NCBI GenBank assembly: GCA_905178155.1
Contig: CAJINV010000014.1
Span: 1,691,984-1,755,983, forward strand
Source of the DNA: Amoebophrya sp. A120
Taxonomy: Eukaryota > Protista > Dinoflagellata
DNA: 64,000 nucleotides
Reading direction: 5' to 3'
The translations under genes were made by a program, and so were the position numbers. Position 1 is the first letter of the stretch. Each line of letters begins with the position of its first letter. Below the pieces are notes generated by a model that worked only from the letters and a program-made list of their open reading frames with translations, did no database searches and was not told the DNA's origin. Below, one piece after another: positions 9,737 to 53,255 of this stretch.

Positions 9737-10002
9737 ATATGCTACCACGTTCTCGCGGCTGTATTATTCGCTTCAAATATATTTTTGTCGTCCTGTAGTT
9801 GTACTTGTAACTACAAACAAGCGTCGAGATACGGTATCTGAATCTGGTGGCGGCGATCCACAAAGACGATGTGCTACTGATGGAATCTTATCTGATGAAC
9901 CAGAGAACTGGAGGAGGTCGCTGGGCTCCTGTAAGGGCCGCGTGTCACCAGTACGAGAATCATACTTAATTTATTGCACAGCGCACGGAAGCAGCAACAT
10001 CC

Positions 10003-27300: not shown

Positions 27301-30300
27301 GAGGCTCTGTCCTCTCGCCGGCGGGGACCACGCTCAGCGCGGCCGCGGGATAGTGGCGTCTGGTCCCCCAGGTCGACGTCGGGCCGTTGGGCTTGCGCAG
27401 CGGAGAGTGGAGCTGCGCTTCTGACGCGACTCGCCGAGCGACGTTTTCCGCTCTTGGAACGGTGTCGGGACCTACTTTTTTCAGAGGACTTTCCTTTTCG
27501 GGCCCTCCTCAGCATTTGAACATGTGCTTCCACGCGGGCGCGCTCTGCTTCTCCTGCGCGCGCCTCCTCTGCTTCTCGCTGCCGGGCCTCTTCTTGTTCA
27601 CTCCTTACGCTCTCCAGCGCAGCTTCTCTCATTTTTCTTCGCATGTCCATTTCCACCTCTTTTTGCCGCTGTTGCTTCAGGTGATCCGCTTGCTTTTTCA
27701 GGTCTTCTTGCAATCTCTCCTCCTCCTCATCTTTCGTCATTTGCAGGGCTTCGGCCTCGGAGAATACCCGCATGACGGGATCGTCGACAGACCGTGCAGA
27801 TCTTGCGGGGCTTGGGGCGCGCGGCTTCTTCGCGGCGGCGCGTCGCTCTTGCTGGGTCCTCGTCTTTGCTCCACCCTTAGAAGGCAGTTTAGCTGCAGGA
27901 GTGCTGTCAGTGCCGATAGCTGTTGCGCCGCCACTGCCGGCTGTTGATGAATTGAGACCGGATGATGCAGCTGCACTTTGCGGCCCCTGTTGCAGTGCAT
28001 CAAAAAACCCGGCGTTTTGCGTGACAAAATCGCCTTCGACGCGGTCACGATCCTTCGGCAAAATAGAAACTGCGCCATCTTGTCGTTCGGGAATAGGACC
28101 TTCCTGCTCACTTGACGCTGCTTCAAAAAAAATGTCGTATCCTTCTTCTTTGAGGCGCTTCGCTTGCTTCTCCTTTTCCTGCTCAAATCGCCCCGAAGTC
28201 TGTGTCCGCAGGCCCTGCTGTCGTGCAATGACCGACGTCCGCATCGTGTTTATTTCCCGTGATAACAAAGTGATCATCGACAAGATATCGCAGGAAAAAG
28301 ATTATTTGAACTGCGTAAAGATAAGAAGTGTAGCTTTGTTGTCTTACTCGCCTTATTATTTGCATCCACCTTCACCTGACAGGGAGAGGAGACTTCTTTT
28401 TGCTTGCATAAACAGAGGAGTGGCCGCAAGATGCCCATGCGCGTCGCTAGTTGTATCTGCTCTACTTGTTCAAAACTACAAACACATCTGAAGACAAGAG
28501 CACTCTGTGGCTGTCTCGTACGACACGCGCAGTCGGAATGAATCGCGTTCTTGGACATGTCTCATATAAGACGAACTCGAAATGCGTTTCAACAGAGCTA
28601 GTACAAGCTACACTAACTCTATACATAGTTCATCATTTGTTTTCTTGGATACAAAACCCCCGTACTGTAGAACTTTCGTGCAGGACCCTCGACTTCTTTC
28701 CTCGCACCAGGTGACGTGGCAAGCTGCTCTTGCATCAACTCAGCAACCGTATTCCGCAGCGCCCCCAGATGGGACGTCGCGTGCTGGCTCAGTGTTTCAG
28801 CTTCGCGGCACAGCAGTTCGGTCGCGTGAAGGTTGTGCGAGTCGAGAATCTTATCCAGTTTTGCTTTCGCGTCTGCGGCAAGGGCGGCAGCGCGCTTTTT
28901 CCTCGCTGTGACGCCATCGTCGCTCGCGAACTCCCCTTTCTTTTTTGATGCTGTAGCTGAAATTTTCACGATAGGCATGGGATGAGAAGAAGAAGAAGAT
29001 GAAGCTGCTGCCACCCTCACCGGCAAACCAAGGGCGAGGGACGCTTTTTGAAGGTCTGCCAGGAGCGAGCATTGGTTGGCAAAAAGGCTTGCGCGCCGCT
29101 CCCAGGTCTGCCACAGCTGCATAATGTCGGTAACAAAAGCATGTGGCTGCAATTCTCGTGCGGTCGGAAATCCGTCCTGCGTTGCAGCTCCTTCCGCGTT
29201 CTTGTCCTCCGCTAACATCTCAGCTAATGCAGAGAAGCAAAGATTACCATCGACGGTAACTATCGGACGGCCGAACGTGTACTAGCGAAGTAGTCTTGAG
29301 AGAAGATTTACTTCGTGATCTACGACACTTGAATTGATGTGAGGTCAGCGGTCTGAGAAAAAGTCAGACAAAAAATGCTGTGGAATAACGTCGAAGACAG
29401 GTTCTCGAAAATCTCATCGTAGTATCATGCGAAATACAATAAATGTTCAGAATTACAGCTCAGGAACCTTCTTGCACACTCCTATACGATGGCGAGGATC
29501 GCTTTATTAAATCCGTATAAAAGATACAAACTACACACAACTTACAACATAAAATCACTGCTTCATGACAAATATGATCGAAAATCATAATCTCAAGACT
29601 TCCTTGCTGCCATACTGCATCAAGTGTGCGACGCTATCCGTTTCCACTTGGCGCAACAACTTCAGCACGAACTCCTCTTTCAAGCCCGCACTCAAGGCGG
29701 CGCTCCGTCCTCGTCCCTGCGCGGTGATCATATCCTGAGTAAAGACGTACCTCCCCTCCACCCATAGCGAAGATGAGAATTCTTCTGCAAGACAAATCAC
29801 AAAGGCCCTCTGAAAGATTCGCATGACAAATTCCGATCCCACGTACGGTGCGTAGTGGTCGGGATTAGCTTGCGTAGCCGCGCCGCCAGAAATCCACCTC
29901 CAAAGTTCCATGGCATTATATATCAATATCTAAACTACACCACAAGAGCCACTACATACAGAATGCTTCTCATGGAGCTCCTGCGCATGAGAGGACACTA
30001 CATTCTGGGTATCTATGCGGATTTTTGGCATGAGATGGTTTTGGGTGCTGGGTATTCTTTACACAGCGTAAGCGACTCGCGACAGCAGCGCTTTCTTCGT
30101 CAGGACGCCCAGCCGGGCGGCGTAAAACTGCAGATCGAGTAAGTGCCACTCTAATTCCTCAAATTTCGAGACGTCTTCGCCGGAAATGAGCTTTTGGTAT
30201 CCTTTATGCATTGCAAAAGAGATGAGACGTTTCGTACTAGGTTGTACCTATGTATAAACTGCGTATACGAAAAATTCACTCTTTCGAATGGAAAATAATA

Positions 30301-33300
30301 TAGACAAAAGTTGCAAAGATGTTGACTGACCTACTTAGAAAGCCAGACTTGATGTCATGCAGCTGTATTGATGGCATTGCAAGTACTACGAGAGCGCTCC
30401 AATTTTTGCAGAGCATATTCTTCCTTCGCAAACACCTGCTTCCACATTTCTTGTCTCGGTTTCACGAACTTTGCCACGTAATTTTCTGGCGGGTTCGAGA
30501 GCTTCGCTGCCCGATTCGGAAAGAGAAACTTTTCGGGGGTGTTACTCTCCAAGTACTCAAAGGCCGCGAGCAGTCTGTCCTTCCTGTATGATAGTGGACA
30601 AATCACGACCCCTAGGACCTCTACTTCCTCGTTTTTTTGAACAGGGGCATGTCTACCAACAGAGAGGAAGGCTGTAGAATACAGCTTCTGCATGCCTGAA
30701 TTCCCACCAAGCCCAGACTGTGTTTGCAGTTTGTAACTCAGAAACTTGCACTTGGTGGCGGTGGGATCTTTTTGCATAATTTTGATTTTGCGTAAACAAT
30801 GAGGGGCACCAGACGGGGGACCGCGACGAGTTGTCCGCTATCATATCCTGCTGATCAGCAACCGAGCGTGATCGTGCATCAGCCGCAAACGGTTTTCCTT
30901 TAGCTCTAGCACACTGACGGCCAGTGGCGGAACGTCCTTGTCCTTGTGGTTGGAGGGCTCAAATAAATCCCTTCCCGCCATAGGGACACCAGATTCCCGG
31001 TTCTGCTTCGTCTCGAAAGCGGCTTCAATCCCATCTGTCGCAAGTTTGACGAGCATCGGCAAAAGAACCGACGCATCACGCTTCTTGCTCCCCGCCGGAG
31101 GTCCGGCTTTGCGGATAGCGGCCATCTGTTCTTGTATTTTTTGCAAGACAACTGTGTGGATGAGGTCGCTTGAAAGCTGAAACAACTCGAGAAACACTAC
31201 TGAAGCCCAGGTCAAACATAGCACCTCCTGCGGATACAGTCCTTCGGAGAAAAAAGAGAGTCCTTTGGTGGACGGACCAGATGGCTCCAGCAGCGCAATA
31301 CGCAGAACGTCGCCTACCGATGCAACTATGGGGAGGATGACTTTCTCCTTCAGTTTCCGTGCCACGCGGAGCTGCATGAGCTCCGCGACCCGTGCCTCTG
31401 TAGTCGACAAAGAGCGGCCGCCCTCCGGGAATAGTGCAAAAAACCCTCTACGGTGCCCCGCGTGCCTCATCTTGTCCACATAAGCCGGCACATCCCAAAA
31501 CAGGGCCGGAAACAGAAAGCGCGTGAGCTCCTCCGCGAGTAATGCCGGCCTCATGGTCAAGCGGAAATAAGGTCGTGGCTCCTGGGCATACAGCCGTTCA
31601 GGCTTCGCAGGGGTAGCAACGCCGGAAGCTGCAACCAACTTTCCCCCGCTAGAGCGACGACCGCCGGAAGGAGCGCTCTCTTGATGCTCGAGTTCCTGCC
31701 AGAAGTGCCAACGCCCAAGTGCGTACTTGGCAAACTCTTCGAACAATTTGGCCGCGCCGGTGGGAGGTTGCTCCGTCGTCTTCCTGGGCGCTGGATCTCT
31801 CACGGTCAAGGCCTGAAAGTTGCCATTTCGCGTGCTATCCAGGTGCTCGTCGAAAAAAGCCGTTTGTGTATAGGCGACGTCATCAATCCAGTGCGTCTGC
31901 CACCGCTGGGCCATGGCAGCAAAATCGCCTTTAATTGTGACTTGCGGCGACGTCTGCCCGTCTTGGCTTCTCTGTGGCGAGGATCCCTCTTCCCGAGGAG
32001 GAGCCCCAGCACTTCTTCCAAACGGCTCGCTACTGTCGTCCGGTGCTGGCGTAAGACTTTGCAACAAAAAATCTGAGTCGTCAAGCAGCGTGTTCGCGAA
32101 AAGGAGTTCATTTTTGTCGTCGTTGACCTCATCTAGGCGGTCGAGCGAAGGAGCAAAAACCTGGATCACCTGCAAATGTTGCCGTGGGCCGACGACCTCT
32201 GTCGGTGGCAAGTGCTTCTGCGGGCGCCCATGAAGAGGACAAAAAGTCAGGGGCTCTGCAGGACAAAAATCCACGCCGAGAAAGTCGGCGAAGAGGGCCA
32301 ACCGCCAAAAGATCGGACTGATGAGAAGATTACTGACATGCTCCCTCTGTAGTTGCCGAAGAGTGGCAGCGTTAGCCAGCGGCCTCTGCAACAGCGGCAA
32401 CAAAGCCTCACTGACCACTTTGGGAAGTCGGTCTACATCTTCCAGCGCAAACGCCCGACTGCGCCGCAGCTCTTGCCGGTACGTGCGGAACAGGTTCGCG
32501 ATGTCTTTATGAAGGTTTCAGTGATGGAAACTCGTCAAAATGGATGAAGTATGCTTGCCTTATTTGCCTTGTTTGTCACGCATAGAATAGAAATATTACC
32601 AATACATCAGTGATAAGCTTGACTTGGAAGACACGGACAGACACAGAAGTAAAAGGCGCATACGCGAATGATTTTGTTGGCGTGCCCAGAGAAAATCTGT
32701 CATGACCTCCAGAGCGCGTGGCCAGCATGGTTTATGATGCCAATCAGCAATGAAAACTCACTAAGCAGGCCTAGCAGCAGATGAAGAATCATCTGGCAAA
32801 ATTAGAATTACTACCTCCCATGCTTCTGTAAACTAATAACCTGGGAACTCTCACTCACACTGTACTACCCTGCGTCCCATTTCACACCATGCAAGTCAAC
32901 ATTTTCACTTCGTCGATTTCCCACCTGACCCCTCCGTAGTCTTCTTGTGCATCATACAGACCATGTATCTTTTCGTTGCCCAGCTCCGCGGTTCGTGCGC
33001 AGGTGTTGCTGTTTTTCCAGAGCTCGACATAAGATTTTGTTTTTTGACCGGATTCGTGGTCCGCACGACAGGTCGCAGCGGCAGCGGAAGTGCCACTTTC
33101 AAACGGTAAGGCAAGCGCGCCCGCCCACTTGAGCTCTCGAAGGGTGTGGAAAAGCGTTTTTGCTTTTTGTCTGTCTCCCTTTCTAACGGCCAAAGCTGCA
33201 GCATTAAGAAAAGCGTATCCTCCGACCTTGTCGAATTTCTGGCTTTCCAAAGACACCTGCCGGTCGCTGTACGCATCAGCAAGATTGCGGGCAGCAGAGG

Positions 33301-35069
33301 GTAGAAACATCGGGTACTTCGTATTCGAACCGTGCACACTGCTCAGGGCCCGCGCCTGGTCAGTTTTGCGTCCACTAGTCTGATAAGCACCGAAGCCATT
33401 AATGCCTTCCATGTGCCCGTGACTGAAATATTTGTCCAAACCCATGTGAGCCCACAGCGACAGCTGTTCGTCTACTAGGTGTATGCACTGCAAATATGTC
33501 CAGATCTGGAAGTCAAAGTCATGCACAATTTGCGAATGCGCAGCATCTACCTTTAGAAGCTTGCGGGCCGTAGCATGAGAGGTAGCTTCCTATTAAACGC
33601 CTTTTCTTCTCCTGTAGGACGAATCGCCTACTTGCGCATCTTCGACCGACTTAAAAGTTCCTATAGCCGTTTACTTTTGTTTCGTTTTTCTGATTGCTTT
33701 CAGCGTGCAATTATACAGGTTCTTCTAGAAATTATCGTTATGTCGCTGCCCAGAAGATGTTGTGCTGCTAGCATCAGCATCACAAACTCGCACTCATTCT
33801 TCCAGACATCCGAAATTTTTGGTATTTGCAATGCATAACCGGTACGGTAAGCAACCGGGTTAACAGCTCGTCGCGAAACTCCATGCTACCTTGCAGCGCG
33901 ACCACAACTTCTTCCTCTGTGGAGTGCTTCTCGATCGCCAGGCGCGCAATCAGAGCAGGGTTGTTAGTACTGGGGTCGGCTTTGTCCTCGTCGGCAGCAG
34001 AATCAGCAGCCTTCACTTCTGCCGGCCATAGGTTCAAGAACGTCTCATCTGCCGACGACCGGTACTCGACTCCCCCCCGTGCTGCCGGACCTTCCGTGAT
34101 TTCTTGCGCCTGTGGAACGAGCCGGTCCCGCCGTTTGTCTTTCTTGAATATCCGCGTGACCCTTTGCAGCGTTTGGTCTGGGCCCGGCTGCGAAGCAGTA
34201 CCTTTGGGGAGTGATTCACTCACACGCGTGCGCACGTGTTCATCCATGATAAATTCCTTGGTCGGGCGGATGAAGGCTTTCAAGGATGACGTTTCGCCCC
34301 GCGTGGCGCGGACCAGTGCTTCGTCCTCGTTCATGCGCTCGGCGTTGCCTTTCAGCCACTCCCGGGTGTACTCGTGCAGATTAGCTAATGGGTCCAACCC
34401 AAGCGTCGTATCTGTCATAGCGCTCTTCAGCGAGTCTCCTTCTAAGGCGTCGGCAAGCACATCCACCTCGGCCTGCGACCACGTCCTGCTTCTACGCACC
34501 AGAACCTCGAGCGCGTCTTCGCTCAACGAGTCCCGCAAGGCCCGCAAATCGTTCGCCAACAGAGCACTGTACGTCGCCCGCTTGGCACTGTGGTCTTCGA
34601 TGCTGCTGATCAAATTTGCCGACGCGGCAGTCACAGCATTGGATGAAATGAACTGGGCGGCACCGCCGGCAGGGGTGGAGGTCATAATATGGTCACTCTG
34701 GAGGTCCTGCTGAGGTGCAGCCAAAACGGCGCTCGCAATTCCAGTTCCGTCACGACGACCTCCATGCACTGCGATCGCCCTTCGTTGTTGCGAGGATGCA
34801 GCAGCTGCAAGAGCGCCGTGAATGATGGTGATCTGCACCCCTGCCGCAGCGCAAAATAAGAAAACGCGCCGGCAGCTGCGACTGCAAGAAAGTAGAGCGG
34901 AATAAGCGGGCAGAGAGGTAGTGGCCCTGTGGGCCGCTGCTACTTCTACTTGGGGGGCGTTTTCATTTTTCGGGTTGCAGTTGTGGAGGTGCAGCACGGG
35001 GCGGGAGACTTTTCCGCTACAGGCGGGATGACCTCTGCCGTTGCCCATCATCAACGAGGAGACTGGCAT
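24319..35069 (-). CDS. Large hypothetical protein (~2420 aa; helical and low-complexity regions; ~10 introns, mostly element-derived)
   Basis: ORFs 33780-35141, 32882-33526, 30841-32418, 30355-30777, 29585-29926, 28619-29218, 27165-28283, 26337-26912, 25463-25690 and 24319-25059 chain in frame; spliced length 7275 nt; no family recognised. Confidence 0.7.
25632..26035. mobile_element. Decayed TIR introner, family E
   Basis: tatcccgcataaccacgtac vs taccccgtgtaaaagcgtac; flanks CAAGA/CGATG; joins KNAI|ESARAL. Confidence 0.7.
26083..26341. mobile_element. TIR introner, family F (259 bp)
   Basis: tat(c/g)agagtgcac TIR; perfect TSD AAGCC; joins QRAL|EKTHF. Confidence 0.92.
26937..27198. mobile_element. 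Decayed TIR introner (262 bp)
   Basis: tatgcaag...ggagata; flanks GTGCA/TTGCT; joins QGSN|GRRSTS. Confidence 0.75.
28286..28651. mobile_element. TIR introner (366 bp)
   Basis: tatcgcaggaaaa / ttttcttggata; flanks CAAGA/CAAAA; joins TGVL|SMITLL. Confidence 0.85.
29278..29614. mobile_element. Heavily decayed element-like intron (boundaries approximate; not counted among the 44)
   Basis: Residual inverted agtcttgaga; removal of 342 nt keeps the frame; no TSD left. Confidence 0.45.
29917..30372. other. Non-canonical intron with flanking direct repeat ATGGCATT (boundaries approximate; not counted among the 44)
   Basis: Joins TCNA|MELWRW; no GT-AG; short residual inverted atcaata. Confidence 0.55.
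30587..30845. mobile_element. TIR introner (259 bp)
   Basis: tatgatag-ggacaa TIR; perfect TSD TCCTG; joins ISR|KDRLL. Confidence 0.93.
32508..32938. mobile_element. TIR introner, family A-like (431 bp)
   Basis: tatgaagg...cctgacccctccgta; perfect TSD GTCTT; joins AQED|IANLF. Confidence 0.88.
33590..33839 (-). other. GT-AG intron retaining one introner-type end
   Basis: Minus strand GTtatgcattgcaaatac...ttaatAG joins TVP|EATSH in frame. Confidence 0.6.
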
Positions 35070-35700: not shown

Positions 35701-35806
35701 TTCTTTGCCAGTGCAACCGACTTCTTTGCTAGTGCAACTTTTCGGAGCAGCCGACTTCTTTGCTAGTGCAACTTTTCGGAGCAGCCGACTTCTTTGCTAG
35801 TGCAAC
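35701..35806. repeat. Intergenic 34-bp tandem repeat (~2.6 units plus a partial copy)
   Basis: Unit gccgacttctttgctagtgcaacttttcggagca. Confidence 0.9.
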
Positions 35807-36801: not shown

Positions 36802-39800
36802 TCAACGTGGCGGCCGCGGAGAGTCGTCAAACGCGAAATTTTTCTCACGCGACCATCTCTGTGGATTTCTGCCCCTTGTCCCTCCTTCCCGCCACGTCTT
36901 TCGCTGTGGTGCTCCACCTGCGATGTTGTTAGCTGCACTACTTGAAGAGCTTCTAGTTCTTCTTGTCACACGCCTCGCAGTTCCTGCATTTCGACCACGC
37001 TGGTTTCGCCTTTGGAGATGACGCAGTTGACCACTATCATGACCACCTTTTGCATTCGCTACGGCTCTCGCGTGGTGTCTGTTGAATGTAGGTGAAGTTG
37101 ATGTAGATGCGATGTTTCCGCTTTCTACCAACCGTCTCTCCACGCCCCGGTAGGCATCTTCCAGCCGCTCCACATTCCCGTACTTTTCCAAGAGCGCGCA
37201 CTTCTCCTCCCCGCCCGTTGTCCCGCCGAACATCGTGTCCAGGACGACATTCCCGCTGCACAAGGTGCTCAAGGGCCCGGAAAACCCGACGTCGTCGTAG
37301 AATTCGAGCTGTTTGGCCTTCTGCTTCCCCAAGGTAGTCTATGAGAGTGCACAACTCCCCCTCCTCCTCATTTGTCATGCAAAATTGCAAGTCCACCCTT
37401 TGTCTTGTAGCACTGTTTGCATGACAGACTCCGGAATCCAAAACAACACTGCACTCTTCTAGGAATTTGTCATGCAAGAGCTGCATCTTTGCCAGCGCTT
37501 GTGTTGCTCTTCATGCAACACAAATGAGGGGGAAGGGGAGTTGTGCACTCTCATATAGTCTCGATGTAGCTCATGTCCGTTGAGTTGTAGCACATCGTTA
37601 GCTATTCTGTGCAAAAGTGTCGTAGTCGTAGTAATGCAGTCATGCATGACAAATCCAATATTTCTACCTGAACTAGCATGACAAATTGCTTTTTTGTTCT
37701 TGAGAAAATTTGTGATGCGATTCATGCTAGTACGATACTTTTGCAATGCATATTAGCAGCGTGTTCTTCCGGGCCAGCAACTCTGTGGCGTACTGCGTTT
37801 TGCATATCCACAGGGAATTTCTCGCACACGTACAAAGACATGCGGTCTCTGCATGACAAAACTTGGCTTCAGCACTAGTTTAGCATGACAACTGTTACAC
37901 TTCAAATTGGCGAAATTTGTGATGCATCTTGTACATGTACGGGAAATTTATATTGCATATTGTACGCGTTACCGCACCACTGGTTACTAATGCTGGTCTA
38001 TCCAGTGCAAAAGTATCGCACTCGTACTAATCGCAGTCATGCATTTACAAATCTCGTTTCCAAGACAAATCAGCATGACAAATTCCGTTTGTCATGCTGG
38101 GCTAATTTGTCACGCGATTTATACTAGTACGATGCTTTTGCAATGCATATGGTCCAGGGGCTGGTGGTGCCAAACGGGTTCGACCGCTGCTCCAAATTGT
38201 ACTTCCCCGCTTGAAAGTAGATGGACGGATCCGTCGCCGATCCGGCGAAGTTATGGATTGCAAAAGCATGATCGCCATCGTAGGGGTAGAAGTTTGATTA
38301 CAGATCTTTGGCCTAATCCTAATGCAAAATTAGCACTACATATTGATGCACTTTTTCTCTCAAAGCATTGGTACTAGGACGAGGAGAGGACTTCTGCAAT
38401 GCATAGAACTGCGCGGCTCCCAATTTCGGCTCGCAGTCCTCCGGAATGTAGACGTAACACGCCCCATCTAGCAGCGTCGCGACCGTCGCGCGATCAGGCC
38501 CCCGAAAGTTGTAGTTCTGCTCTGTGAAAGCTCCTATGCAATGCAAAAGTACTTCGCATTCGTGGAAATTGCAAAAATGACAATTTTTTTTTTATTTCAC
38601 GTTGAACAAATTGTCATGTTCGAGCTGGATCTTGTAGAAAAGCAAAAGCGCTACTTTTTGCGCATGATCGCAATTAGAATTCCTACAAGCACGACATCAC
38701 CTTTGCAAGGGATAGATCCTTCGGTGACTCGGGACATGGAGTTTAGGTTGTAGAAAGTGAAATGCTATGCACTGCAAAAGTATCGTAGTCGTATGAATTG
38801 CAGCAATGCATAACAAATCTGGTTTGCTACCCGAATCTACATGACAAATTGCAGTCTTCTTCTTGAGAACATTTGTCATGCGATCTGTACGTATACCCAT
38901 ACCAGTACGATGCTTTTGCAATGCATAAATGCCTCGAAAACTCCTCCTTTTTCACCCGGACACACTCTTCGTAGCAACTGTCGTCAATCTCCGACAGCAT
39001 CTTCTCCCGGATCACGTCCGCGGACAGGGTCGTATGGGAGTGTCAGGATTGAAATCGTCAAAGTTGAAATGATTTGTCATGCATAAAATGCATGGCGCGA
39101 AGTACGTGTGTTGCAGAGCAGGCAAGTGAGGCCGATTGAAGCCTGTTTAGGGTTAGGGCTCGAGCTGCAGAAGTAGCATGAGAGAGTCAATCTTTTGTAC
39201 CTCAGCAGCATTACAAACTGGATTTAGGCACAACCAAAATTTGTCTTGCGCCACTTGGAAACTGGGGCTCAACTGGCATCCATTTTGCGCATGGCAAATT
39301 ATTTCACCTTTGACGATTTCAAACCTGACACACCCATAGGTCGCATTGGTGACGTAGTTCGTGTCGTAGTCGTGGTAACTTGTTGGGGACGTGGAGTATG
39401 CTGTGCAAAAGTATCGCACTCGTACTAATTGCAAATATGCATGACAAATCTCCCTCCCAAGGTAAAACAGCATTACAAATTTCACTTTTCTTCTTGCCAA
39501 AACTTGTAATGCAATTTATACTAGTACGTTACTTTTGCAATACATATGGCGACTGTGGCGGCCATGGTCGTCTTTTGCGGGATCGACATGCCGGCGTCGA
39601 GCTCGAACAGTCTCTGTAAATGGTATTCCCCGGTGAAGGCCGCTTTCTCGTACTCGTCTACAAGTTTCGAATTCAGTTCCGGCACGGCGAAACTGGTGGG
39701 GGAGAGAATGCAGTAAAACAACTCGCGGTCGTCTGGAAGGAAATCCGTATCATAGTCCACTGCGTTGTTATTTATCGTCGTGACCGCCGGGTCCGTCGCG

Positions 39801-42800
39801 ATCGCCTGGCATTTCGTGAAATCCGGCTCGTTCGCGGGGAGGGTCAGCTTCGCGAGTCTCTGCACGTCCGAGATTAATCTTTTCTGCGTGTACAGCGTTG
39901 GGTCGGTGGCGGAGGGAGTAGGAAGGACGCTCTGTGTGCGGTGAGAACAAACAAGGTCGAGTTTCTCTTTCTTGTTGCTCCAGAAAGTAGCGCTTGATAT
40001 CTTGCTTTGCAACAAATGCGTGCACTAACCTGCTCGGTATCAGGGATACAATCACCATCAAGGCCGACGACGTAAAAATCACACATCACAAGTTGTCAAA
40101 GTCATATACCGCACGTAGAGAAATAAAAACAGATCGAAATCACGCGGGTCGTGGGGGGGTAAGTGTACGAGATGAGGATCATGAAGTAATAAAGCAGAAA
40201 AAACCATAAAAAAATTATACCGTATGCCGCATGCAGGTGGCTAATTTTCCCGCCGTGACCAGTCTTTCCGCGTCGGCAGCGCTGTTCGCGAACTGATTCC
40301 CGCCTCGTCCAAAAAACAAATTTGTGTACTCGTCGTACGTCTGGCGGTAGAGCTGTAAGAAATCGTAGACTGCAAGTTTTGTCTTTGCCGGCAAATCCAT
40401 GTTGGACAACTTTACCAAGTCCGCTTCCGTCACAGCTGCGTCGGTTTTCACAAAGTTTTCCACCTTCGTACTGATCGTGGCATCGGGTAAAGAGTGGGCG
40501 GAGACCTGGTGATGAAACGATTCAATTCTGGACAAATTTGCAATCACGAACAAGCGAACACGAACAGGTCGATATGCGTAAGTACGCCACCTCGATATCA
40601 ATCTTACGTCTCAGGCGCGAACCCTGTTCTTCAGAAGTTAGAGATACCTGCTCTGTCTGATAGTTGGAGTATCTGCAGGAAGGTAAAGTAATACAGACGT
40701 GTTGTACCTGCAGCTTCCTCCCCCAAAAATCCACAACTTCTTCTCCTTCACGACCTTCGCTTGATGCAACACCCCGCTCCAGCAACTCCCGGATCCTGGT
40801 AAAGGAAAACGCAGCTTGCACCTGGTCCATCGCGCATTTCTGCGCCGCTTTCAGCACCACTTGTTCCACCCTTTGTTTCATCTTGGCGACCAGTTTCGCG
40901 CGGAGGCAGAAGTCGCTGTACGACAGCTGCTGCAGCAAATTGCTGTCCGGCATCAAATCGTTGTCCACGTCCTGCATCAGCGTCAAATCCGACGGGTGCT
41001 CGGTTTCTGCGCTGTACTGGTCGCAATTCGCGTACCCGAGGCCAACTTCGAGCATGTCCTTCACCGGTACGTCGAGACATTGATCGTTGTTCCGATCCAG
41101 CGTTTGAAACAATTTCGCTAGGCTCTCCGTGTTCAATAGTTCCTGCATTAGAGGAAGTTGCTTAAAAGGGTTTGAGTACTGGGAACTACTCGCAGGAAGG
41201 GAGGAAGACTCTGAACTTCCTCCGCCGACCAACTCCTTCAAAGGTTCCACCACCGCCTCAAAAAACTGCTTCCCCTCCGTGACCGACATGATCCCGCTGC
41301 CTAAATTCGTCGAAATTAACCCCGCGTTCCTATTGTACGCCCGGAGTTGCTTCTTCAGATCTCCTGCTTGCTTGTTCACAATTTGGTACTTCAGCGAGCT
41401 GATCCCCTTCTCGACCGTCTCAACTGCCTTTGGGACCACGAGGGTTTGAAAATTATCCACAAACTCATCCTTCGACAATTGCCAGGGTAAGCAGCCGGTG
41501 CGGAGCAGCTTCACATCGTTTTTATTGCTTAGCTCAAACCCGACGGGTAACAGCTCGACGTTGGTCGCTTCGTGCAGCCCGGAGGTACCACCAGTGATGG
41601 ACTGGACGAGGGAGACTTTGGACAGAGAGTCCGCCGCCTTCGCGGAGAGTAAACCGTTGCTGCCCTGGAGCGAGCGCAAGGAGCTCCTGCTGTCCGGGTT
41701 GTATGGCTGAATGCTGGAGCTGCTGATCCTGTCCTCGCTATTCCGGGCAGCAGCGTCGACTACATCCTTTGGCTTTGCTGGTGCACTTATTGGTGGGGAT
41801 GAAAGTGTAGTCTCGACCGCAGCTTGTGTATGTGTGGCGAGCCCGCTCATGCTTGTTCGCCAATTCACACCGGGGAACGGCTTTGCTGACGCGCCGGCGC
41901 GACTTGTCTGACTACTTCCACTGCTTTTCATGGAGGCCACGACCTGCGAAATTGACCTCTTCTCTGTTTCACCCCCCGCGGCACCAAAACTGTTCCACCT
42001 GGATCTTTGCGCTTGCAACAAGTGCCTGACGCGGTGGAAGTTCGGAATCAGATCCACACTCGATCCGCCTACCACCTCGCCTTCTGCCGTTTGCTCCAAT
42101 CCGATGTCATCCGCGGACAGGAATGGGTTGTAGGCGGGAGACGAACCGCCCGCCTCCGCTAATATTCCGGGCGAAAAAACCGACTCACTCTCGCTGTTCT
42201 TCGGCACACACCCCGCACCGTCGATTTTGTAGGCGACCGGGGAGGAAATGGACAAAGAAGTGCTGTCGCTTCCACCACTCCCGCACCTCCTGTGGGCGGC
42301 ATGCAGTGGATCCTTGGCTAGCATCAGCAACCCGAGGATCGTTTTCACGACCAGAGCCTTGTGTTCCTCCGACACACTGGCGTCGAAGCTGTACCCGTAC
42401 GGCTTGTACGACTCGTTGTAGTAAAGTTTCGTCAGTTTCGCAGCAGCGTCGTCGTTTTCCAGCGCCGTTTCCGCGGCGGAGAGAGGCCCGCTTGCGGCTA
42501 AAACGGTTGTCGTGTCCTTGATCAAATTTTCCAAAAAGCTTTTCTCGTCCTGGTTGTAATGTGGGTTCAATGTTTGCTATGCAATACAAATTTCCCGTAC
42601 ACGACGTACAAGATGCATCACATCAAATTTCACCAATTTGAAGTTTAAAACTTGTCATGCTAAACTAGGAAATCGGAGCCAACTTTTGCCATGCAGAGAC
42701 CGCACTTGTACGTGTACGGGAAATTTCATGTGGATATTTGCGCCTGCTGATGTGCCGTGTAGTTCATTACTCCATATGCTTCGACGGTTTCCGTGTATTT

Positions 42801-45800
42801 TCCGTGGTCCTTCACCGCATTTTGTTTCAATTTTTCCATCAACTCCTTGAGCTCCCGAATGAAGTCGAGCTGGATGAGGTTTACAGAGGTGGCGGAAGTT
42901 TGTGCCGTGACAGTGGCGTTAAACATCTGGTACAGCATGTCCGCGGTGATTACAGCATATGAAACCTCAGAATTGAAATCCTCAAAGCCGAAATGATTTG
43001 TGATGCATGAAATGCGACGCAAAAAAAACTGTATTGCAGAGGACGCAATGGAGGCCGACTATTGTCCTGCTAGGGGCGAAGAATTGAGGCGCTGCTTAGC
43101 ACGACAGAAGGGAACCCCTTTGCCTTAATCTGCATGACAAACATGCTTTAAGTGTCCGGGAAATTTGTCGTGCGCTGACCACAAATGGCGCTTCAACTGG
43201 CATCGTTTTTTTGCATTACAAATCATTTCGACTCTGAGGATTTCCATTCTGAGGCTTTCATACAGCACTCGAGCCGCTTCCGTCGAAGCTCGTGCTCCGC
43301 ACGTGCGTGGTCGCGTGGATCACCGCGTCGTCACTAATTCGGAATTCTGCGTTGCTGGACTGCGTCGTTGGGACGGCGGTGTGCCCGCCCGCGGCGCCCG
43401 TGGAGGCGGAGTTCGTCATGAAGTTTCCCCGGTAGGTCGTGAGGATCAACTTATGGCGTTCTCAAACGTTACATTCTCAACTGTTACATGATTTGTCATG
43501 CAAAATGACCATGAGCCGCAAGACAATCAAGCTGCTTCGCATGACAAATTGTCGAAGGGCTAAATAGCATCTAAATCCATGCCAAAATTTGTGATGCAAG
43601 ACTTGCAAGCTTGCCCCTTTCCGTATTGCTGTTTTTGCATGACAAATTCATGTAACAGTTGAGAATGTAACAGTTGAGAGCGCCATACAACTCCGTCAGC
43701 GCTTGGAGATTCCTCGCCTTGTCGAGAGATTCCTCGTACTGCTGGTCGGTAAGCATGGCGAGTCTGTCTTGCTGCAGTGCCGCGTTGCTGCCGGTCAGCG
43801 GTTCATCTGGTCGTGGGGGATTTTCATCTCCAGATGTGGCTGCGTTACTCGCAAGAACTGGTGATAATTCATCTGCACGAGCACCATACAGTTCCCTACT
43901 TGTCCCGCCGAGAGTACTCGTTTGAAACTTCTCTTCGAACAGCTTCATGCAGTCTTTCTTCCCCAAATTCTTCAGCATTCCCATCACGCAGCAGAATGGC
44001 CCAGGCTGAATCAAACCGGTGGAACTGTCTGGCTGCATCAAATGGTAAAATTTCTTCGCGCCGAGCCTTTCTAGATCGTCAGAGGCGAGGAGAAGAGAAG
44101 AGGAAATTGGAGTTGATGCACCAGGATTCTGCTCCTCTTCCTCTCCGAGCACTGCCTCCACGAGACCACACGTCTTCACGTCGGTCATCGCGGTGGAATC
44201 AAGGCAGGCGGATTGGTAGTCTTTCAGCATTGGCCCCGTCAAAACCTGGTTCCCAATACCACTCGTGCTGGGCTGCAGCAATTTCGAGTTCAAAACCGTA
44301 TCAATCACGTTGTTTTTCGTCTCGAAGTCGATGAGTTTTGCTCTTTCCTCCAGCATTTCGCTACTCGACTTCCCTGTTGTTTCCGAACCGGTGAGATGCG
44401 AGTTCGAGTTACTTGCTTCCAAAACTAATTTCTCGTGGAAGTCCATGGGGATGATCTCCTTCGTTAAATCGGCCTTCATTTGCAACAGATCCGGAACGCA
44501 GAACATGTTTTTCATGAGCAATTCCTCGTAAGCGAGCCTGATATCCACGTGCAACAAGTCCAAGTCGGGCAATTGCGTCTCTGGCATCTGCTTGTTCTTC
44601 ATATCCTTGAAGGCAGCGGTGATGGAATCCGAAATGATCTGTTGTTGCGCGGTACAGCTCGGCAGGGAGGTAGACCGGGAGACCTCGCAGGAAAAATCGA
44701 GCAGTGGGATTCCCATTTGGATTGACAATGACCGGGAGGTGGACTTAGAAGATGGCTGTGCTTGATGTTCTTCAACAAGAACGCGATCATCTTCGTTCCT
44801 TCCAATCAATTCTCGTCCCGGTCCCGTGCTCCCCTTCCACAGCATCCTGCCTGAATTTATCCGATACAATTCGTTTTGCAAGTTTCCAAAATCGAAGCAG
44901 CTCGGGCAAACCTCCTCGAACTTCTGATTTTCAACCTTACTTGATCGTAGACCCGAGATTTCCGTCAACGCTAGCCCCCCGACACAGTTGCTCCCGTCGG
45001 AAGCTTGGCAGTCGCAGACATCCGCCAAATGGTCGCCGCATTTCGTCTCGAGTAGCGCTGTCACGTTGAACCCTGGCGAGGGGGTCTGCTCGAGATAGGC
45101 TGAGCCAGTGGTGTTCACGTAGTGGATCGCTTGGAGTTCCCGCTGGGCTGCAGCTGCGGCGGCGGCTCCTGCTGCGTAATTGGTGTTGACAGCAGCAGGT
45201 GGAGAAGCAGCTTTTGATGTCGTTATTACTCTGCTGTTGTTTTCGTGGTCCACGTTCCTCCCCAAAGATGATGATGAACTAAGTGCTGCCTCCGCCACGC
45301 CACCAGGCGCGCCTGCAGTGTTGGTCATCAAAATCCTGCTCAAATTCTCCTTAAACACTCTCCGCAAGGTTCTCTTCCGGTGCTTTTCTTGCCCGATGAT
45401 TCTGTGCAGGACTTCTTTCTTGTCCTGGTCGGTGAGTAGTTTCCTTGTGTTTCGGTTAATATCCTTCCGCAACTCCAACAACTGTCGACTCACTGTTTGA
45501 CTTTCGTCTTTTGCCAGAGAACTTTCCTCCATCGACTGCTTTGCTTCCTTCACTGATTCGTACATTTTGATCACTTCTTCGTGACACTCTGCCTTTCGCT
45601 TCAAACAGGGGCAGTGTTTCAGAATCTCCGCCCCGGCGTCCCCAAGACACACATTTTCGTACGAAGCAACATTCGTTGAGTGCGATTTCAAGCACCCACA
45701 CTCCTCAATGCACCCCGGTCCAGGCTGGTTCGCGATCAAATTCAAAAACAGTACCGAATTCTGTTTGTACCCCGCTTTCAAGTAGTTCGCACTGTCGTTC

Positions 45801-48800
45801 TCGAGCGAAGTGGAAAGAGGTAACAGCTTCTCTTGCAATGGTAGTTGCTTGCAGCTGAGGGGTGCTTTTGTTGTGGATAGTATCACCTTGTTGAAGAACT
45901 GCAGTACAGACAACTGGTTCAACGCCCCGAAACCCCCGGATTGGTGCTTCACGACAAATCTTCCGTCAGCGTTCTTCACCACGCCCTGCGTCTGCCGCGA
46001 AAACGGGTGATCGAGCAAAGCGATGTTCAAGCTCGGTCCGGTGTCGATTGTCAACGTCACCCCCGCCGCCTGTGCGGCTAACTGCGCGGACAAAGAGGGC
46101 GGCGTTGTGGTGGTTGTTGGTGTTGGGGTCACGCACCAGTCGAGATCCCCGTGCACTTTTTTGATCCTCGCCTGCGGGTCGAACTGCAACAGTTGCTCCG
46201 CCTCGATCGGACTCGTGACTTCGTAGAACTGGCAGCCGGTGAGAAAGCGCTCGTAGTTGCGGACACTGGTATGCTATCCTGTGCAAAAGTATCGCACTCG
46301 TAGTAATCGCAGTCATGCATTACAAATCTCGATCCCAAGGCAAAACAGCATGACAAACTCCATTTCTCATGCTGATTAAATTTGTCATGCGATTTCTACT
46401 AGTACGATACTTTTGCAATGCATATATGCTTCAAGTGCGGCCCGGTGGAGGTCATGGCGACGTTAGAGGCCGGGCTGAGAACCGAAACGTCGAGGTGCTT
46501 TTTCGGTTCCGTCACGCTCTGCAGATTTCTAGTACTGTCGGAGGAGGTACTAGCTGTGAAGACCTGCTGCGAATTATGCAGCAGTGACTGAGAAGATTCC
46601 GGCGCTTCTGCCCCTCCTGCAGGAGCCATTTGCTCCTCCTCTAGCGTAGTTTTTGTCCGTTCAATTACAGCTGCGTCCTCCTCTCGTTCCTCTAATCTTC
46701 GGACGCGGTGCGTCAGCTGCGCTGCTTGTTCGTGCAGCTGCAGCATAGCGTCGTCGAGGATAGTGTCTACCTCGAAATCCGACTTGCCGAAGTACGTTTT
46801 GAGACAATACCTCACTTCCGGTTCCATCAAAACCTGGTCGTCCACGTGGTCGGAGAGGAAGCGAAGAGAAGCTTGGTCCTCGGCTCTGTCATGCGGTACT
46901 GCTCCGACATTTCCATTTGAACTTGATGAAGAGAAAGAGTCTATATGTGACAAGGACGAGTCCACCTGTCCCTGCGCAGCAGTTTCGAGTAACAACATTT
47001 CCGCTTCTACATTTTCTCTCGAATCCAAGAAACGCTCCGCGGTGCTGGAGGTCGCCCCAGTGGCAAAACTGCCACTGCCGTTGTCCTGCTCAACATAGTT
47101 GTTCATACTCTCGGCCAGAATCCGCATTACGGACTTGATTCTTTGCCTCCGCTGCTTCTTGACGAAAGGTACATGAAGACTATCAGCAGCAGCTTCATGT
47201 TGACCACGAGCTTCTAGAGCTCGAGCTCCTCGTCCTGCGGTGGCATTATCGTTCCGGCCACTGGTCGTCTTTCCAATCAACTTCCTCGCTTTCCTTCTCA
47301 TCAGTAACCTCCTCAGGCTGTGTGTCGCGTACCTCACAGGACTCGGGATCGAACCCATCGTCCGGCCGTCGAAGTTGCAGGCCCACGCCACGGTCAAAAA
47401 CTCCCCAGCAGTGTATTTCTCTAATGCGGTTTCCGCAGCGGTGTCGATCGCGTACGGCTGTAAAATTTGCGTCAGTTCGACCACACTACTTAGCGACAAG
47501 CTGAATACCTTCTTCACCAAAAGCAAGTCGTTTTGTCGCAACTTCTCATCCGCCGCACTGCTCGTGGGGCAGTCGAGATTCAAGATGGTTAAAACCTTCT
47601 TCGCCTCGTGCAGAAAGGCGGAAAAGTCCTCCATTCTGCTCACCGTCCCGTCGGAAAACGCTTTGCGGGCTAGGGCCATTAGCTGGCTGTCGTCTTGCTT
47701 CGTGACTTGGGAAGCATGGGGGAAGGGATTGTTACTCGCTGCCTTCATTTTCGTGACCATTTCGGTTCCTTGGGGGACCGACATCGGGATCACCGGTGCG
47801 GGAACCATAGCTTGGAGGTTTCGTGTTGAAGACGGTGCAGAATTAGCTCGTCCTTGAGCAGTAGCTTCCGGAACTTCTGTTGGAAAATCAGCTCGGCGTG
47901 GCGAGGAAGATGCTAATAAACCAGCAGCCTGCTCCTGCTCCGGCGCATCATGCTGTCGACTTTGCTCCACAACGGCCTCTGATGTTCTTCTCCTTTCCCT
48001 TCTATTCGCACTGCAGCCGGACTCGAAATTTCTGTTCCGCAGCGCTTCTACCAGGGGCGCTGTAAATTCCAATTGCTCTAAGCACTGATCGTTGTTCACG
48101 TCCTTCAAGTTGTACAAAACTCCGCAGACATTCCCGGATGAACTCTCGCCCTCCACCGTAAACCCGCCACTGCTGATGTACAGTGCGCAAAACTCCGACT
48201 CTTTCATACACCCAGTCGTCCCGCAGGTGCTGCTCTTCGAGCATGCAGACTCAAATTGTTCGTACATGCTATTCGAAGTTGTATCCGCCGAGCTGGAAGT
48301 TGAATAGGACAGACACTCTGCGGCTGTCACTTTCTCGTCGTTATTGACGTTCATCGCGGCGAAGACGGCCTTCTGAGACTCGAAACTCAAACTCGTGGTG
48401 GTACTGCTGATTTGGGTCGGCGATGTGATGTACGCGGAAGTGAAGAAAGGACACGAGGCTGAGGCTCCTGCTGAATAGATACCTCCGTCAGCAGCTACCC
48501 CGGCAGACGCAGCTACAGAAGGCGCTGCTATTTCCACTGGTATGATCCCGGTATCCATTTGAAATATCCTCACGAATTCCTGCTCTGATATGTAGCCATT
48601 CCGGTCCAAATCTACCAATTTCAAAATCTTCCGCTTCACCATCCGCTCCCCGTACAAATCGCTCATCACGGTCTCTTTCAACATCGTCTTTTCCTTCAAA
48701 ACTTTCATCATGACGTCGATGTGGATCTGCGTTTTGTAGAGGTAGTTGGTCCTGTGCAAAAGCTCCTTGATGTTTAAAAGGTCTAATGTGTTGGAGGTCG

Positions 48801-51037
48801 TTCCCGATCCGGACGATGATGAGCCGCTGCCCGAAGAAGAAGTGCCACTCGTCGCTGCAGCTCCCGCTGTTGCAAGCATCTTCTGAATCACCGGCGATTC
48901 GTTTTTCGACCTTTCCAACACAGTGGAAAAACAGATCCCAAAAGTCTGCAGCTCAGACGTCGATAGGTACTCACTATTATCACAATCGTGGCTGTGGAAC
49001 CAAGAAAACACCTTCAATCTGTTTGCGTTGGTGATGTCCAGCATTACCGCGTTTGGATCTGCCGCCGGGACGGAGCCGGCAAAGCCAGCCGGTGTGGTCG
49101 TCGTCGTCGCGGGGGCGTAGAGAACCGGGATTCCGAGCTGCTCAAGGAGGTAGGACCCGACCAGGTCCTTGTGGCAACTGTATCTTTTCTCCGGGTTGCA
49201 GACGTCTAGCAACGATTTGTACATCAAATGCGAGTACTCCAACTTCGCGTCATCCAGCGCCTCCGCTGCGATTGTCAACAAATAATCCGTCCGCATGCAA
49301 CTCCCCGTAACACTGCTCGCACACGTCGCGTTTGCCGGCGCGGGTTTCGGAGTAGCTTTTGGATCAGGTAAAAGCCCTGTTGGTAGAACCTCTCCGGCCG
49401 GAAGCAAGGTTTCGCAAATCGACGTTGTATCGTGACACAGATGTATTGATCTGTGCAGTGCCAGCGGCGTGTCCGGCGTCACGGGTCCGTAGCCGGTTGT
49501 TTGACTTTCTTGCGACTGCAGCAATTTCGTCTGCACGGTGACGTTCGTGTAGTTGAAAATCAACATTCCCCCCATCGCGGTCGCGAACTTCACCAACAAA
49601 CTGCTGGTCGCGAAATTCTGCTTCTGTTCGCTCACTGTCGCAGAAGCGACAACAGTGGTCGACGGTAGACTGTTTCCCTGCCCGAGATGCCCTACACCGG
49701 AGACGAAATAATTTCCGAACATATCCATTTGCTTCTTCACAGACACGATTTCTTTCAGCGTCACCGGGCCTTGCAAAGTCGGGATAAGGAAGGACTGCAC
49801 GTTCTGCAGCTCATGTTCCGTCATATCGTAGACACAATTCAACAATTCCTCGTATCCCTGACAAGTCCGGATCGCCTGCGCCAGCTGGATCCTCCCGCCA
49901 TTGTTCACGTCTTCCAACTCTCCGGTGGCCATTTTGGTATTGGTGATTTCTGTCGTCTTTGCTTTCACTGCCTGGAGCTGGCGTCTTTTGAAGTGTTCTA
50001 CTGAAAATTTTTGTGGTTCTTCATCCGCACTTTCGTACTCCACGGACACACTAGAACCTCCAACTACTGCAGCGCTTCCGCTTTCTCCTCCTGCTGCTGC
50101 ACTCCTGCTGCTTTCCAAGAGTCGCCTTCTTTCCCGGATAAACCCGGTGCTTTCTGTGCTCGTCTTTCCATCATCGGCGAGGAAAACCGGTTTGAAGTTT
50201 TTCGTGTACTCGTTCGCCAACAACCCAGAAATAAACGAAACCGCCGCCATCAGGACGATGACGACGAAAGTTAAGTACAGAATCTGGCGGAGGAAGATAC
50301 CCTCCCATCGAAGGCGTTTTTCCGCCTCGGCGGCGAGGGCTAGCTCGGAGACGGAAACGGCACCCGTGTTCTCCGGGTCCCAGAGCTTGAGGACGGTTTT
50401 TACCTGATAGATAAACAAAGGGAGAGTTGATAAGTCGTACAAGGGTCAATTACTACATGCACAGCTTCTAACATGCCACATCATGCACGATGCAAGTGGC
50501 GTTGGTGCTGGCGGGCCACAACCACGAGCCAACAGCAGCAAACGGAAACGCCGAGTATTTCTAGGAAAACCTGCGCGCATGTTATACCTTTTCTGGAAAG
50601 CTGTTGTAGTCCAAATCGGCGGAGTTGTTCTTCACAGCGAGTTTCATTTCCGCCAAGCGCTGCAACATTTCCTCTAGTTCTTCGCGATCCAACCCATCGC
50701 CATCTTCGTCCAATTTGTTCAAACTATCAACTGTAAAAGTGTCTGGGTCTGGAAGAATCCAACTTGTCATGCTGATTTTGGATTCTTTATTGCATGAGCA
50801 GCAAAGAGAGTCCAAGTTTTGCTACACGGAAAGAGCATCTGTCATGCGGTTGAGGCATCAGGAAGCCCTCACAAAATCTGTGATGCTAGGGCATGCATCA
50901 CAGACATCAGGAGTCTTCATGCAAAATGTGCATAACTGGCAATCTTCCAGACCCAGACATTTTTACATTTGATACAAACTGGACTTCAGCCATTCCGGAG
51001 CGTGCAGCTCCGCAATGTTCACCGCGGCTAAGGACAT
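36802..51037 (-). CDS. Giant EF-hand-like/Cys-rich single-pass membrane protein (~3590 aa; 14 TIR elements + 3 GT-AG introns)
   Basis: gccaccATG start at 51037; TM helix ILYLTFVVIVLMAAVSFISGLLA; loops DLDRNGYISEQEF, DVNNDQCLEQLEF and DPENTGAVSVSEL; GT-AG introns 50404-50587, 40506-40707 and ~39932-40220; spliced length 10767 nt is divisible by 3. Confidence 0.82.
37340..37555. mobile_element. TIR introner, family F (216 bp)
   Basis: Perfect 21-bp TIR tatgagagtgcacaactcccc; TSD TAGTC; joins YIET|TLGKQ. Confidence 0.95.
37603..37752. mobile_element. TIR introner, family B (150 bp)
   Basis: TSD TTAGC; joins NTLL|TMCYN. Confidence 0.93.
37805..37959. mobile_element. TIR introner, family C (155 bp)
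   Basis: Flanks TTGCA/TTGTA; reverse-orientation relative of 42578-42736; frame restored. Confidence 0.9.
37999..38149. mobile_element. TIR introner, family B (151 bp)
   Basis: TSD TGGTC; joins SPWT|SISNQW. Confidence 0.95.
38252..38405. mobile_element. TIR introner, family B-like (154 bp)
   Basis: Flanks GAAGT/GAACT; joins AAQF|AGSAT. Confidence 0.9.
38535..38714. mobile_element. TIR introner, family B-like, reversed orientation (180 bp)
   Basis: tatgcaatgcaaaag...tttgcaagggata; flanks GCTCC/GATCC; frame restored. Confidence 0.88.
38766..38927. mobile_element. TIR introner, family B (162 bp)
   Basis: TSD AATGC; joins FSRH|FTFYN. Confidence 0.95.
39033..39338. mobile_element. TIR introner, family A (306 bp)
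   Basis: Long TIR; TSD GGTCG; joins TNAT|LSADV. Confidence 0.95.
39397..39546. mobile_element. TIR introner, family B (150 bp)
   Basis: Flanks TGGAG/TGGCG; joins ATVA|TSPTS. Confidence 0.92.
42578..42736. mobile_element. TIR introner, family C (159 bp)
   Basis: aaatttcccgtaca TIR; TSD TTTGC; joins QQAQ|TLNPH. Confidence 0.95.
42958..43262. mobile_element. TIR introner, family A variant (305 bp)
   Basis: tatgaaa-cctcagaat TIR; TSD CAGCA; joins GSSAV|ITADM. Confidence 0.95.
43452..43687. mobile_element. TIR introner (236 bp) with tandem subterminal repeats
   Basis: ~40-bp TIR containing two ctcaactgttacat units; TSD CAACT; joins LTEL|ILTTY. Confidence 0.95.
46275..46424. mobile_element. TIR introner, family B (150 bp)
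   Basis: TSD TATGC; joins HLKH|TSVRNY, linking the 1347-aa and 872-aa ORFs. Confidence 0.95.
50725..50974. mobile_element. TIR introner, family D (250 bp)
   Basis: TSD CAAAC; joins LKSSL|NKLDED. Confidence 0.95.
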
Positions 51038-53004: not shown

Positions 53005-53255
53005 AATTGGAGCCCAACCCTTCTGTCCGGCGTTGCTGTAGTGAAATTATCATGTTGGAGGGAAATGAAGATGGGATCAAAAGAAAACTATGTCCCAATG
53101 ATGATGAACAAGATTAAGATTATAACAGAGGCCACGCTTACTATGAAGTGCTTTTGAGTATTCGTTAACGCGAGAAATAGATCTTGGGCGACAGCATCGC
53201 AAAATAAAACCTTTCATCTTGTTCAAAAATTACATTCACGACTGCTCTGTACTGC

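Follow-up and report, generated by a model that had tools for sequence, protein, structure and literature searches.

How can sequences that interrupt coding DNA be removed exactly when neither the GT-AG ends of ordinary introns nor a fixed orientation guides the process? The question is raised by a 64,000-nucleotide stretch of the genome of the dinoflagellate Amoebophrya sp. A120 (assembly GCA_905178155.1, contig CAJINV010000014.1, positions 1,691,984 to 1,755,983 of the forward strand), here called the window and numbered from its first letter. This eukaryotic sequence has its long reading frames on the minus strand and carries many short inverted-repeat elements that are absent from RNA-like contigs of one host gene. 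Overall, removal very probably takes place at the RNA level. We put at roughly even odds (about 0.5) the proposal that the elements are spliced out by the U2/U5/U6 core of the host spliceosome, with the terminal hairpin of each element predicted to replace U1 and AG recognition.

A scan of the window for TAT..ATA inverted repeats returned 39 candidate pairs, while 10 Markov controls yielded 0-3 apiece, so the elements are real and not chance pairings. In the curated set of 38 elements, 23 are flanked by a perfect 5-bp direct repeat (target site duplication, TSD), the same number that an earlier inspection without database searches, the sequence-only reading, had given; perfect direct repeats of 3, 4, 6, 7 or 8 bp were found at none of the 38. 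Two family C copies were said to lie in opposite orientations in one gene (37805-37959 and 42578-42736), and they do, being 84% identical when one is reversed and 66% in direct alignment. The element at 38535-38714 had been described as reversed relative to other family B copies; this holds for its end types only, since its body resembles the nearest family B copy at 61-62% in both directions.

The part of the host gene covered by one RNA-like contig (36113..46812, minus strand) resolves into 16 exons that sum to 7670 nt, the length of the contig from run X3, with an open frame of at least 2326 codons once 13 elements and two GT-AG introns are removed. Retention of any single intron lowers the longest frame to between 1204 and 2198 codons, in line with the earlier claim that frames are restored. 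Runs X3-X6 derive from one sample. No run that covers the stretch is catalogued as RNA, and calling these four RNA is a guess supported by content: they lack the GT-AG introns and thus behave as mRNA. X3 and X4 have next to no cover over 28000-36000, which has no bearing on expression. Joints that skip exactly the element plus 5 nt were found for all 12 elements within 37200-43800 and, in record 9 of X3, for the family B element at 46275..46424, making 13 of 13. The 12 elements and two GT-AG introns of 37200-43800 give joints of which 12 recur in four of four runs, one in three and one in two, with no other letters involved; an extra row among the joints is a low-depth joint between two family D copies.

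From the 3' side of the gene, the removed elements are 37340..37555, with a perfect TSD; 37603..37752, 37999..38149 and 38766..38927, all of family B with perfect TSDs; 37805..37959 of family C and the B-like 38252..38405, both with imperfect TSDs; 38535..38714, with reversed B-like ends and an imperfect TSD; 39033..39338 of family D, whose sense strand lacks an AG and whose one GT-AG register lies on the non-coding strand; 39397..39546 of family B, with an imperfect TSD; 42578..42736 of family C, opposite to 37805 and removed in four of four runs; 42958..43262 of family D, without any AG and removed in three of four; and 43452..43687, with a perfect TSD and removed in two of four. The two canonical GT-AG introns (39932..40220 and 40504..40705, minus strand) are removed in the same contigs, as expected from the claim that ordinary introns coexist with the elements. 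None of the 13 RNA-tested junctions allows GT-AG, GC-AG or GA-AG, nor any pairing of a GT or GC donor with an AG acceptor as in U2-type introns; five of them allow no AG and 11 no GT. The inverted family C copies and 38535, with its reversed ends, are all removed. Independence from GT-AG and from orientation is thereby confirmed, and the two contrary outcomes set beforehand, canonical junctions in RNA and reversed copies left unspliced, were both looked for and neither was seen. Outside this gene, a deposited protein model, P0001, removes the AG-less family D element at 4654..4964 together with a further element at 4260..4600 whose sense 5' end is TAG and for which registers k=1-5 (defined below) fit.

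The same model identifies the source: exon 4965-7430 is 100% identical to P0001 of Amoebophrya sp. A120, and the host strain is A120. The genome of this strain, with its introner elements and non-canonical introns, was described by Farhat et al. 2021 (PMC7789003); that article and the others cited below by PMC number are drawn on through their available sections. There, more than 60% of introns are non-canonical, the inverted repeat of an introner begins with TAT followed by about seven variable bases and an A-run, direct repeats measure 3-5 nt, splice sites are called variable relative to the hairpin, and RNA-supported non-GT-AG removal, genes with both kinds of intron and a hairpin model are reported. 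The window elements agree in organism, in the TAT-start inverted repeat (position counts in 180 strand-called elements reproduce TAT, seven variable nucleotides and the A-run), in direct repeats at the boundary (5 bp here), in non-GT-AG removal from transcripts (13/13, in runs that are RNA by guess and by content), in mixed genes and in forming repeated non-autonomous families (lengths 108-754 nt). They are the published A120 introner system, and finding them and their non-canonical removal is a rediscovery. Beyond what the available sections of PMC7789003 state are a TSD of exactly 5 bp with empty sites, removal in both orientations, one register and strand-asymmetric ends, part of which its supplementary figures S19-S25 may show. 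In those sections orientation is a term applied to genes, and the supplement text makes no mention of excision. A literature search returned no report of orientation, register, branch points, end asymmetry or DNA elimination for these elements, a point on which the figures of PMC7789003 and Roy et al. 2023 may bear. New here is evidence that the element ends are likely read on the RNA strand, and that their reader is probably an adapted spliceosome.

A metagenome scan with the family D terminus provided 52 loci of a wild relative for comparison. One of these, L030, is the orthologue of 35374-41622 at 92-95% identity, and it is DNA, because both canonical introns are kept. It lacks the elements at 37340, 37603, 37999 and 38766, with one 5-mer left at each site, and has the other five of nine; in the window, TSDs are perfect in the four elements absent from L030 and imperfect in four of the five that are shared. 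Conversely, the element at L030:5622-5740 is absent from the window at about 41618-41622, where one TSD copy stands. These differences represent recent transposition (or precise loss), an insertion polymorphism and not wholesale or programmed elimination. Among 145 strong hairpins in the relative's loci, picked regardless of duplications, 100 have a perfect 5-bp repeat and none a 4-, 6- or 7-bp repeat; a search defined by nothing more than an inner hairpin within a 5-bp repeat gave 145 hits, of which 122 ended in TAT/ATA. In coding DNA of the relative, elements commonly stand in either orientation (8:4 for family B, 11:5 for A and 7:14 for D; 77 strand-called of 181 elements).

We also noted that L030:2992-3305 occupies the same site and TSD as 39033-39338 with a different family D copy (nearest to 60280) in opposite orientation, which could be gene conversion or a metagenome misassembly through the shared termini. 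The element at 39397 and its adjoining exon (39339-39546) are 100% identical in L030, neighbouring elements 94-95%. A further locus, L031:5338-5808, holds a tandem array of three hairpin units, each about 155 nt long, whose termini are of another kind (GCA..TCG), with a 5-nt repeat between units.

The position of the cut can be expressed as k, which counts how many bases of the upstream TSD copy stay with the 5' exon. At each of the four imperfect TSDs it is the upstream copy that RNA retains, which requires k of at least 2 at 37805, 38252 and 39397, none of which has an AG in its allowed registers, and of at least 4 at 38535. Only k=4 or k=5, that is one base before TAT or directly at it, fits all 13 junctions, and from the four imperfect TSDs we infer one register shared by all elements. 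For 38535, a GA-AG register exists in the DNA at k=1, a motif known in dinoflagellates, and RNA excludes it; CT-AG at k=4 is compatible. The TSD of this element is perfect in L030, from which it follows that the mutation struck the copy that is discarded. All four imperfect TSDs rule out a 3' site placed universally after ATA and the first base of the TSD (k=1). The element at 16865 separates the two surviving registers, k=4 predicting Met and k=5 Ile; protein searches returned no deposited model spanning it.

A second line of evidence comes from damage to the element ends. One change in a terminal triplet was found in 18 of 225 elements, 14 of which could be assigned a strand with nothing forced. 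All seven position-3 changes fall at the sense 5' end, and of the seven changes at position 1 or 2, six fall at the sense 3' end (Fisher 0.005, post hoc). In 13 of 14 cases, then, the 5' UA and the A three bases from the 3' end are retained, and it is the bases pairing with them that differ. The loci alone give 12/12 in agreement (of 16 variants), and calling strand by the sign of a coding model gives 17/18. The variants at the sense 5' end are TAC and TAG, and the A at the sense 3' end is invariant in 180/180 called elements. A simulation of 288 kb produced no false variant calls, and of 62 cases judged by two strand callers, 60 received the same answer from both. We take the asymmetry as a sign that the ends are read on the transcript, because a transposase or a DNA excisase sees both ends alike.

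For the reader of these signals we favour the adapted spliceosome. In this proposal the cut would fall at k=4, so that the intron would start N-U-A and resemble a GUA donor whose first base is free. The terminal ATA would then have its first A 7 nt upstream of the 3' junction, and this A may act as the branch nucleotide or an equivalent signal, and the 3' site would be set by distance and not by AG; fixed short distances from branch to acceptor exist in some protists and yeasts. With TAT/ATA at both ends, an element would supply both signals in either orientation, and its removal would be independent of orientation for that reason. At k=4 the kept 5' UA corresponds to +2/+3 in canonical donors of the host gene, which start GTAT and GTAC, and the top non-canonical motifs of Table S4 in PMC7789003 all have T at +2 in both strains, in line with this proposal. 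There is a precedent in Fritillaria borealis (PMC11282704, PMC13326754), whose introns are likewise transposon-derived, with terminal inverted repeats (TIRs), TSDs and non-GT-AG ends, and are handled by an adapted U2-type spliceosome. Fritillaria differs in its preferred motifs (AG-AC, AG-AT), its retained U1 and its duplicated U2AF, whereas the A120 elements show no dinucleotide preference and, beside a near-complete set of spliceosome proteins, U1 small nuclear RNA (snRNA) is reported as undetected (PMC7789003). A stricter version, in which the transposon termini carry a complete code without U1 and without AG (donor N-UA one base before the stem, branch A in the terminal ATA, acceptor 7 nt on), is one that we hold only tentatively. 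The inverted repeat would then set donor and branch A side by side, as domain VI of group II introns does, and every new insertion, wherever in coding sequence and whichever way round, would from the outset be a perfect intron.

Several observations weigh against the adapted spliceosome or the details assigned to it. The asymmetry of the ends was noticed first and then tested on overlapping data, so that P values are post hoc; only five strand-called cases were new after the first sighting, and all five fit. One exception is the element at 12201; 11603, overlooked by the scan, would join it if their gene is plus-strand. Strand calls in the relative are inferred from frames and not from RNA. 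Both k=4 and k=5 fit the junctions, and the motifs of Table S4 may reflect the choice of an aligner inside the TSD. No branch-point consensus or sense bias was found in the last 60 nt, leaving pairing with U2 unexplained, and no gain of G at +1 is seen under k=4 in the relative (35/110 sense, 32 antisense). The terminal stem is itself variable: its pairing probability exceeds 0.5 in 25 of 36 elements on either strand, is only 0.18-0.47 for four removed elements, and the best fold of 38535 leaves the ends unclosed. On the sense strand G-U pairs are fewer than A-C pairs (19 versus 37), and neither the sense-strand G-U excess nor the lower sense folding energy that had been considered was found.

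The main rival, which we regard as possible and somewhat less probable than the adapted spliceosome, is a second, non-spliceosomal RNA pathway in which an endonuclease would measure from the terminal stem and cut both ends, and a ligase would join the exons, as proposed for the nonconventional introns of euglenids (PMC12501133) and diplonemids (PMC12621601). It fits the tolerance of any dinucleotide at the 3' junction, the lack of a branch consensus and the undetected U1 snRNA (PMC7789003); family C folds better than shuffled sequences in both orientations (z -2.1 and -2.7). The short 5' and longer 3' spacer around the stem resembles the Euglena code (PMC12501133), and introns of euglenids and hemistasiid diplonemids share with the A120 elements an origin resembling miniature inverted-repeat transposable elements (MITEs), direct repeats at the junctions, a terminal stem and GT-AG introns alongside (PMC12501133, PMC12621601, PMC11282704). 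The Euglena motif itself is absent: introns there need N3CDG...CHG N5-6 with a purine at the start of the next exon and release circles (PMC12501133), while A120 elements end in TAT/ATA, have a stem beginning at base 1-2, and show a purine at TSD index 4 in 106/180, near the 54% background. The last three positions keep base identity and not pairing, differently at the two ends; the kept 5' UA coincides with donor positions +2/+3; and several removed elements have weak terminal stems. Structure-guided RNA removal, one of two mechanisms put forward by the sequence-only reading, is the better of the pair. Two parallel pathways are not demonstrated, as a single adapted spliceosome accounts no less well for a kept 5' UA and 3' A. 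In sum, the earlier observation on removal is confirmed and its interpretation is supported in part.

Ordinary splicing at a near-canonical site (a GT, GC or GA donor or an AG acceptor) that each TSD might offer in a variable register is improbable. Eight of the 13 RNA-tested elements do allow an AG, an AG directly 3' of the element is somewhat commoner on the sense strand in the relative (35 sense versus 25 antisense of 110), and other dinoflagellate introners co-opt sites in this way (PMC9860276). Against it stand the dinucleotides of the 13 junctions given above and the unused GA-AG at 38535, and the RNA-like joints largely refute it. Sliding the registers through the 23 perfect TSDs of the window on the coding (minus) strand gave rates as expected by chance: GT-AG is possible in 1/23 (56647) against 3.8% expected, and any AG in 15/23 against 49% (P=0.09). 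GC-AG is possible in 1/23 (26083). Both single cases, and the eight elements without AG in any register (4654, 13925, 14332, 15589, 22403, 39033, 42958, 60280), are those first listed; GA-AG is available in three elements (3245, 30587, 55613) where two had been counted, and 14332 offers AT-AC. Among 110 strand-called perfect elements of the relative, GT-AG is available in 3 on the sense and 4 on the antisense strand, and any AG in 56, the 49% expectation. Selection for AG or GT in TSDs was not significant in the window or in these 110 elements, and an enrichment of T at TSD index 3 (17/38 window elements) was not replicated (18/77 and 42/180).

Programmed excision from DNA in the transcribed stage, like that of the internal eliminated sequences (IESs) of ciliates, is very improbable. 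Ciliate TA-IESs and the MITE-derived IESs of Blepharisma are transposon-derived, have TA-containing ends and are removed precisely from coding sequence, leaving somatic DNA with one TA retained. The A120 elements share TA-containing termini, direct-repeat pointers and exact removal, and four sites are empty in L030 DNA. They differ in staying in the DNA and leaving a variable 5-mer, the joints removing both element TAs and keeping one 5-mer copy. In DNA run X1, which may be the data behind the assembly and so not independent, unique sequence is covered evenly at 43-47x, and contigs bridge the elements at 38252, 38535 and 42578 at 43-44x (42578 at 43.9x) with flanks at 42-45x. Because contigs drop rare variants, this depth speaks to the common allele, and rare empty alleles are possible, also among 588 joints of X1 beyond those listed. 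That L030 keeps five of nine elements and has one extra is a pattern of polymorphism, and damage to the ends follows gene direction, unlike the output of a strand-blind excisase. The IES-like mechanism offered by the sequence-only reading is not supported on these grounds, and no split into germline and somatic nuclei is known in this parasite. A self-splicing or tRNA-type intron is barely credible: hairpin structure is all that speaks for it, no Rfam match (group I/II or tRNA intron core included) was found in the window at the gathering threshold or in 37200-43800 at E<=1, and the elements, down to 108-124 nt, have divergent interiors.

Regarding their origin, the elements are filed as non-autonomous TIR elements of unassigned superfamily. 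The TA..TA termini of IS3EU/GingerRoot and the TNT..AYA termini of IS481EU (PMC10045372, PMC12730594) fit the TAT..ATA of the A120 elements, the TA..TA pattern of IS3EU being present in the same 122 of 145 hairpins of the relative, where it was no requirement of the search. The IS3EU TSD is usually 6 bp and that of IS481EU about 4, 15 or 25 bp, so neither fits the 5 bp found here; 6-bp TSDs number 0/145 in the relative and 0/38 in the window. IS3EU/IS481EU transposases are integrase-like, in line with the integrase-like open reading frames between the TIRs of one A120 family described by Gozashti 2025 (PMC12130899), whose supplement gives TIR DNA with superfamily unknown in the two of its 58 rows covered here. 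No transposase or long autonomous copy was found in the window or in the 52 loci, the longest locus element (1031 nt) having no frame above 151 codons. A short internal motif, CAT[GT]ACA, is found across families and is concentrated in the elements (57 copies in their 10,147 bp, against 17 in the 53,853 bp outside them); it is likely a transposase-binding repeat.

The remaining elements lie in clusters along the window. Those of 13925..18276 are 13925-14048, 14332-14646, 14707-14998, 15589-16342, 16374-16683, 16865-17191, 17227-17654 and 18022-18276, and removing the five elements from 15589 upwards opens a minus-strand frame of 981 codons in silico. Within 3245..12309 are 3245-3480, 11603-11904, 11957-12171 and 12201-12309; without its three elements, 11528-12440 is open on both strands (88 and 90 of 90 codons). 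Known from sequence only are 21836-22117, 22403-22664, 26083-26341, 28286-28651, 30205-30417, 30587-30845 and 33482-33837 (within 21836..33837), and 50725-50974, 54498-55056, 55613-55861, 56647-56872 (the one GT-AG case), 57136-57534 and 60280-60586 (within 50725..60586). Further degenerate candidates missed by the first scans are 891-1139, 14707-14998 and 29485-29876. A large foldback element at 10072-11527 has family-D-like ends, a 5-bp repeat with two mismatches, inner arms of 133 nt (10855-11133) and, at 10273 and 11378, two copies of a 32-nt palindrome. The 754-nt element at 15589-16342 contains a nested hairpin (15801-16184) and short telomere-like C/A runs near 16080-16120, and a 34-nt unit stands in three tandem copies at 35713-35814.

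In runs X3-X6, contigs at 39033 and 39397 start 28-30 letters before the element and carry flanks from other loci; such starts, expected where spliced and unspliced forms branch, are a weak hint of element-containing pre-mRNA. In X9, a run of raw RNA reads, 90 reads match 42965-43064 at 90-95% identity with foreign flanks and represent a family-D-like element in RNA of another strain or locus. Pfam matches comprise three zinc knuckles (20833-21834), an EF-hand (46426-50445), a histidine phosphatase (18278-20011) and DUF1415 (4965-7430), with no match in 10 of 14 exons tested across the window. The host-gene frame likely continues upstream to 50445, through the EF-hand; two large exons of the gene that were tested gave no Pfam match.

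How these elements are removed has been an open question since 2021, and the fixed register and asymmetric ends now give predictions at the level of single bases: a lariat at one named A, Met and not Ile at 16865, and changes that are lethal or neutral depending on the end at which they fall. If these predictions hold, they would show how a spliceosome can drop both GT-AG and U1 and how a transposon in coding DNA loses its harmful effect whichever way it faces, which bears on the origin of introns.

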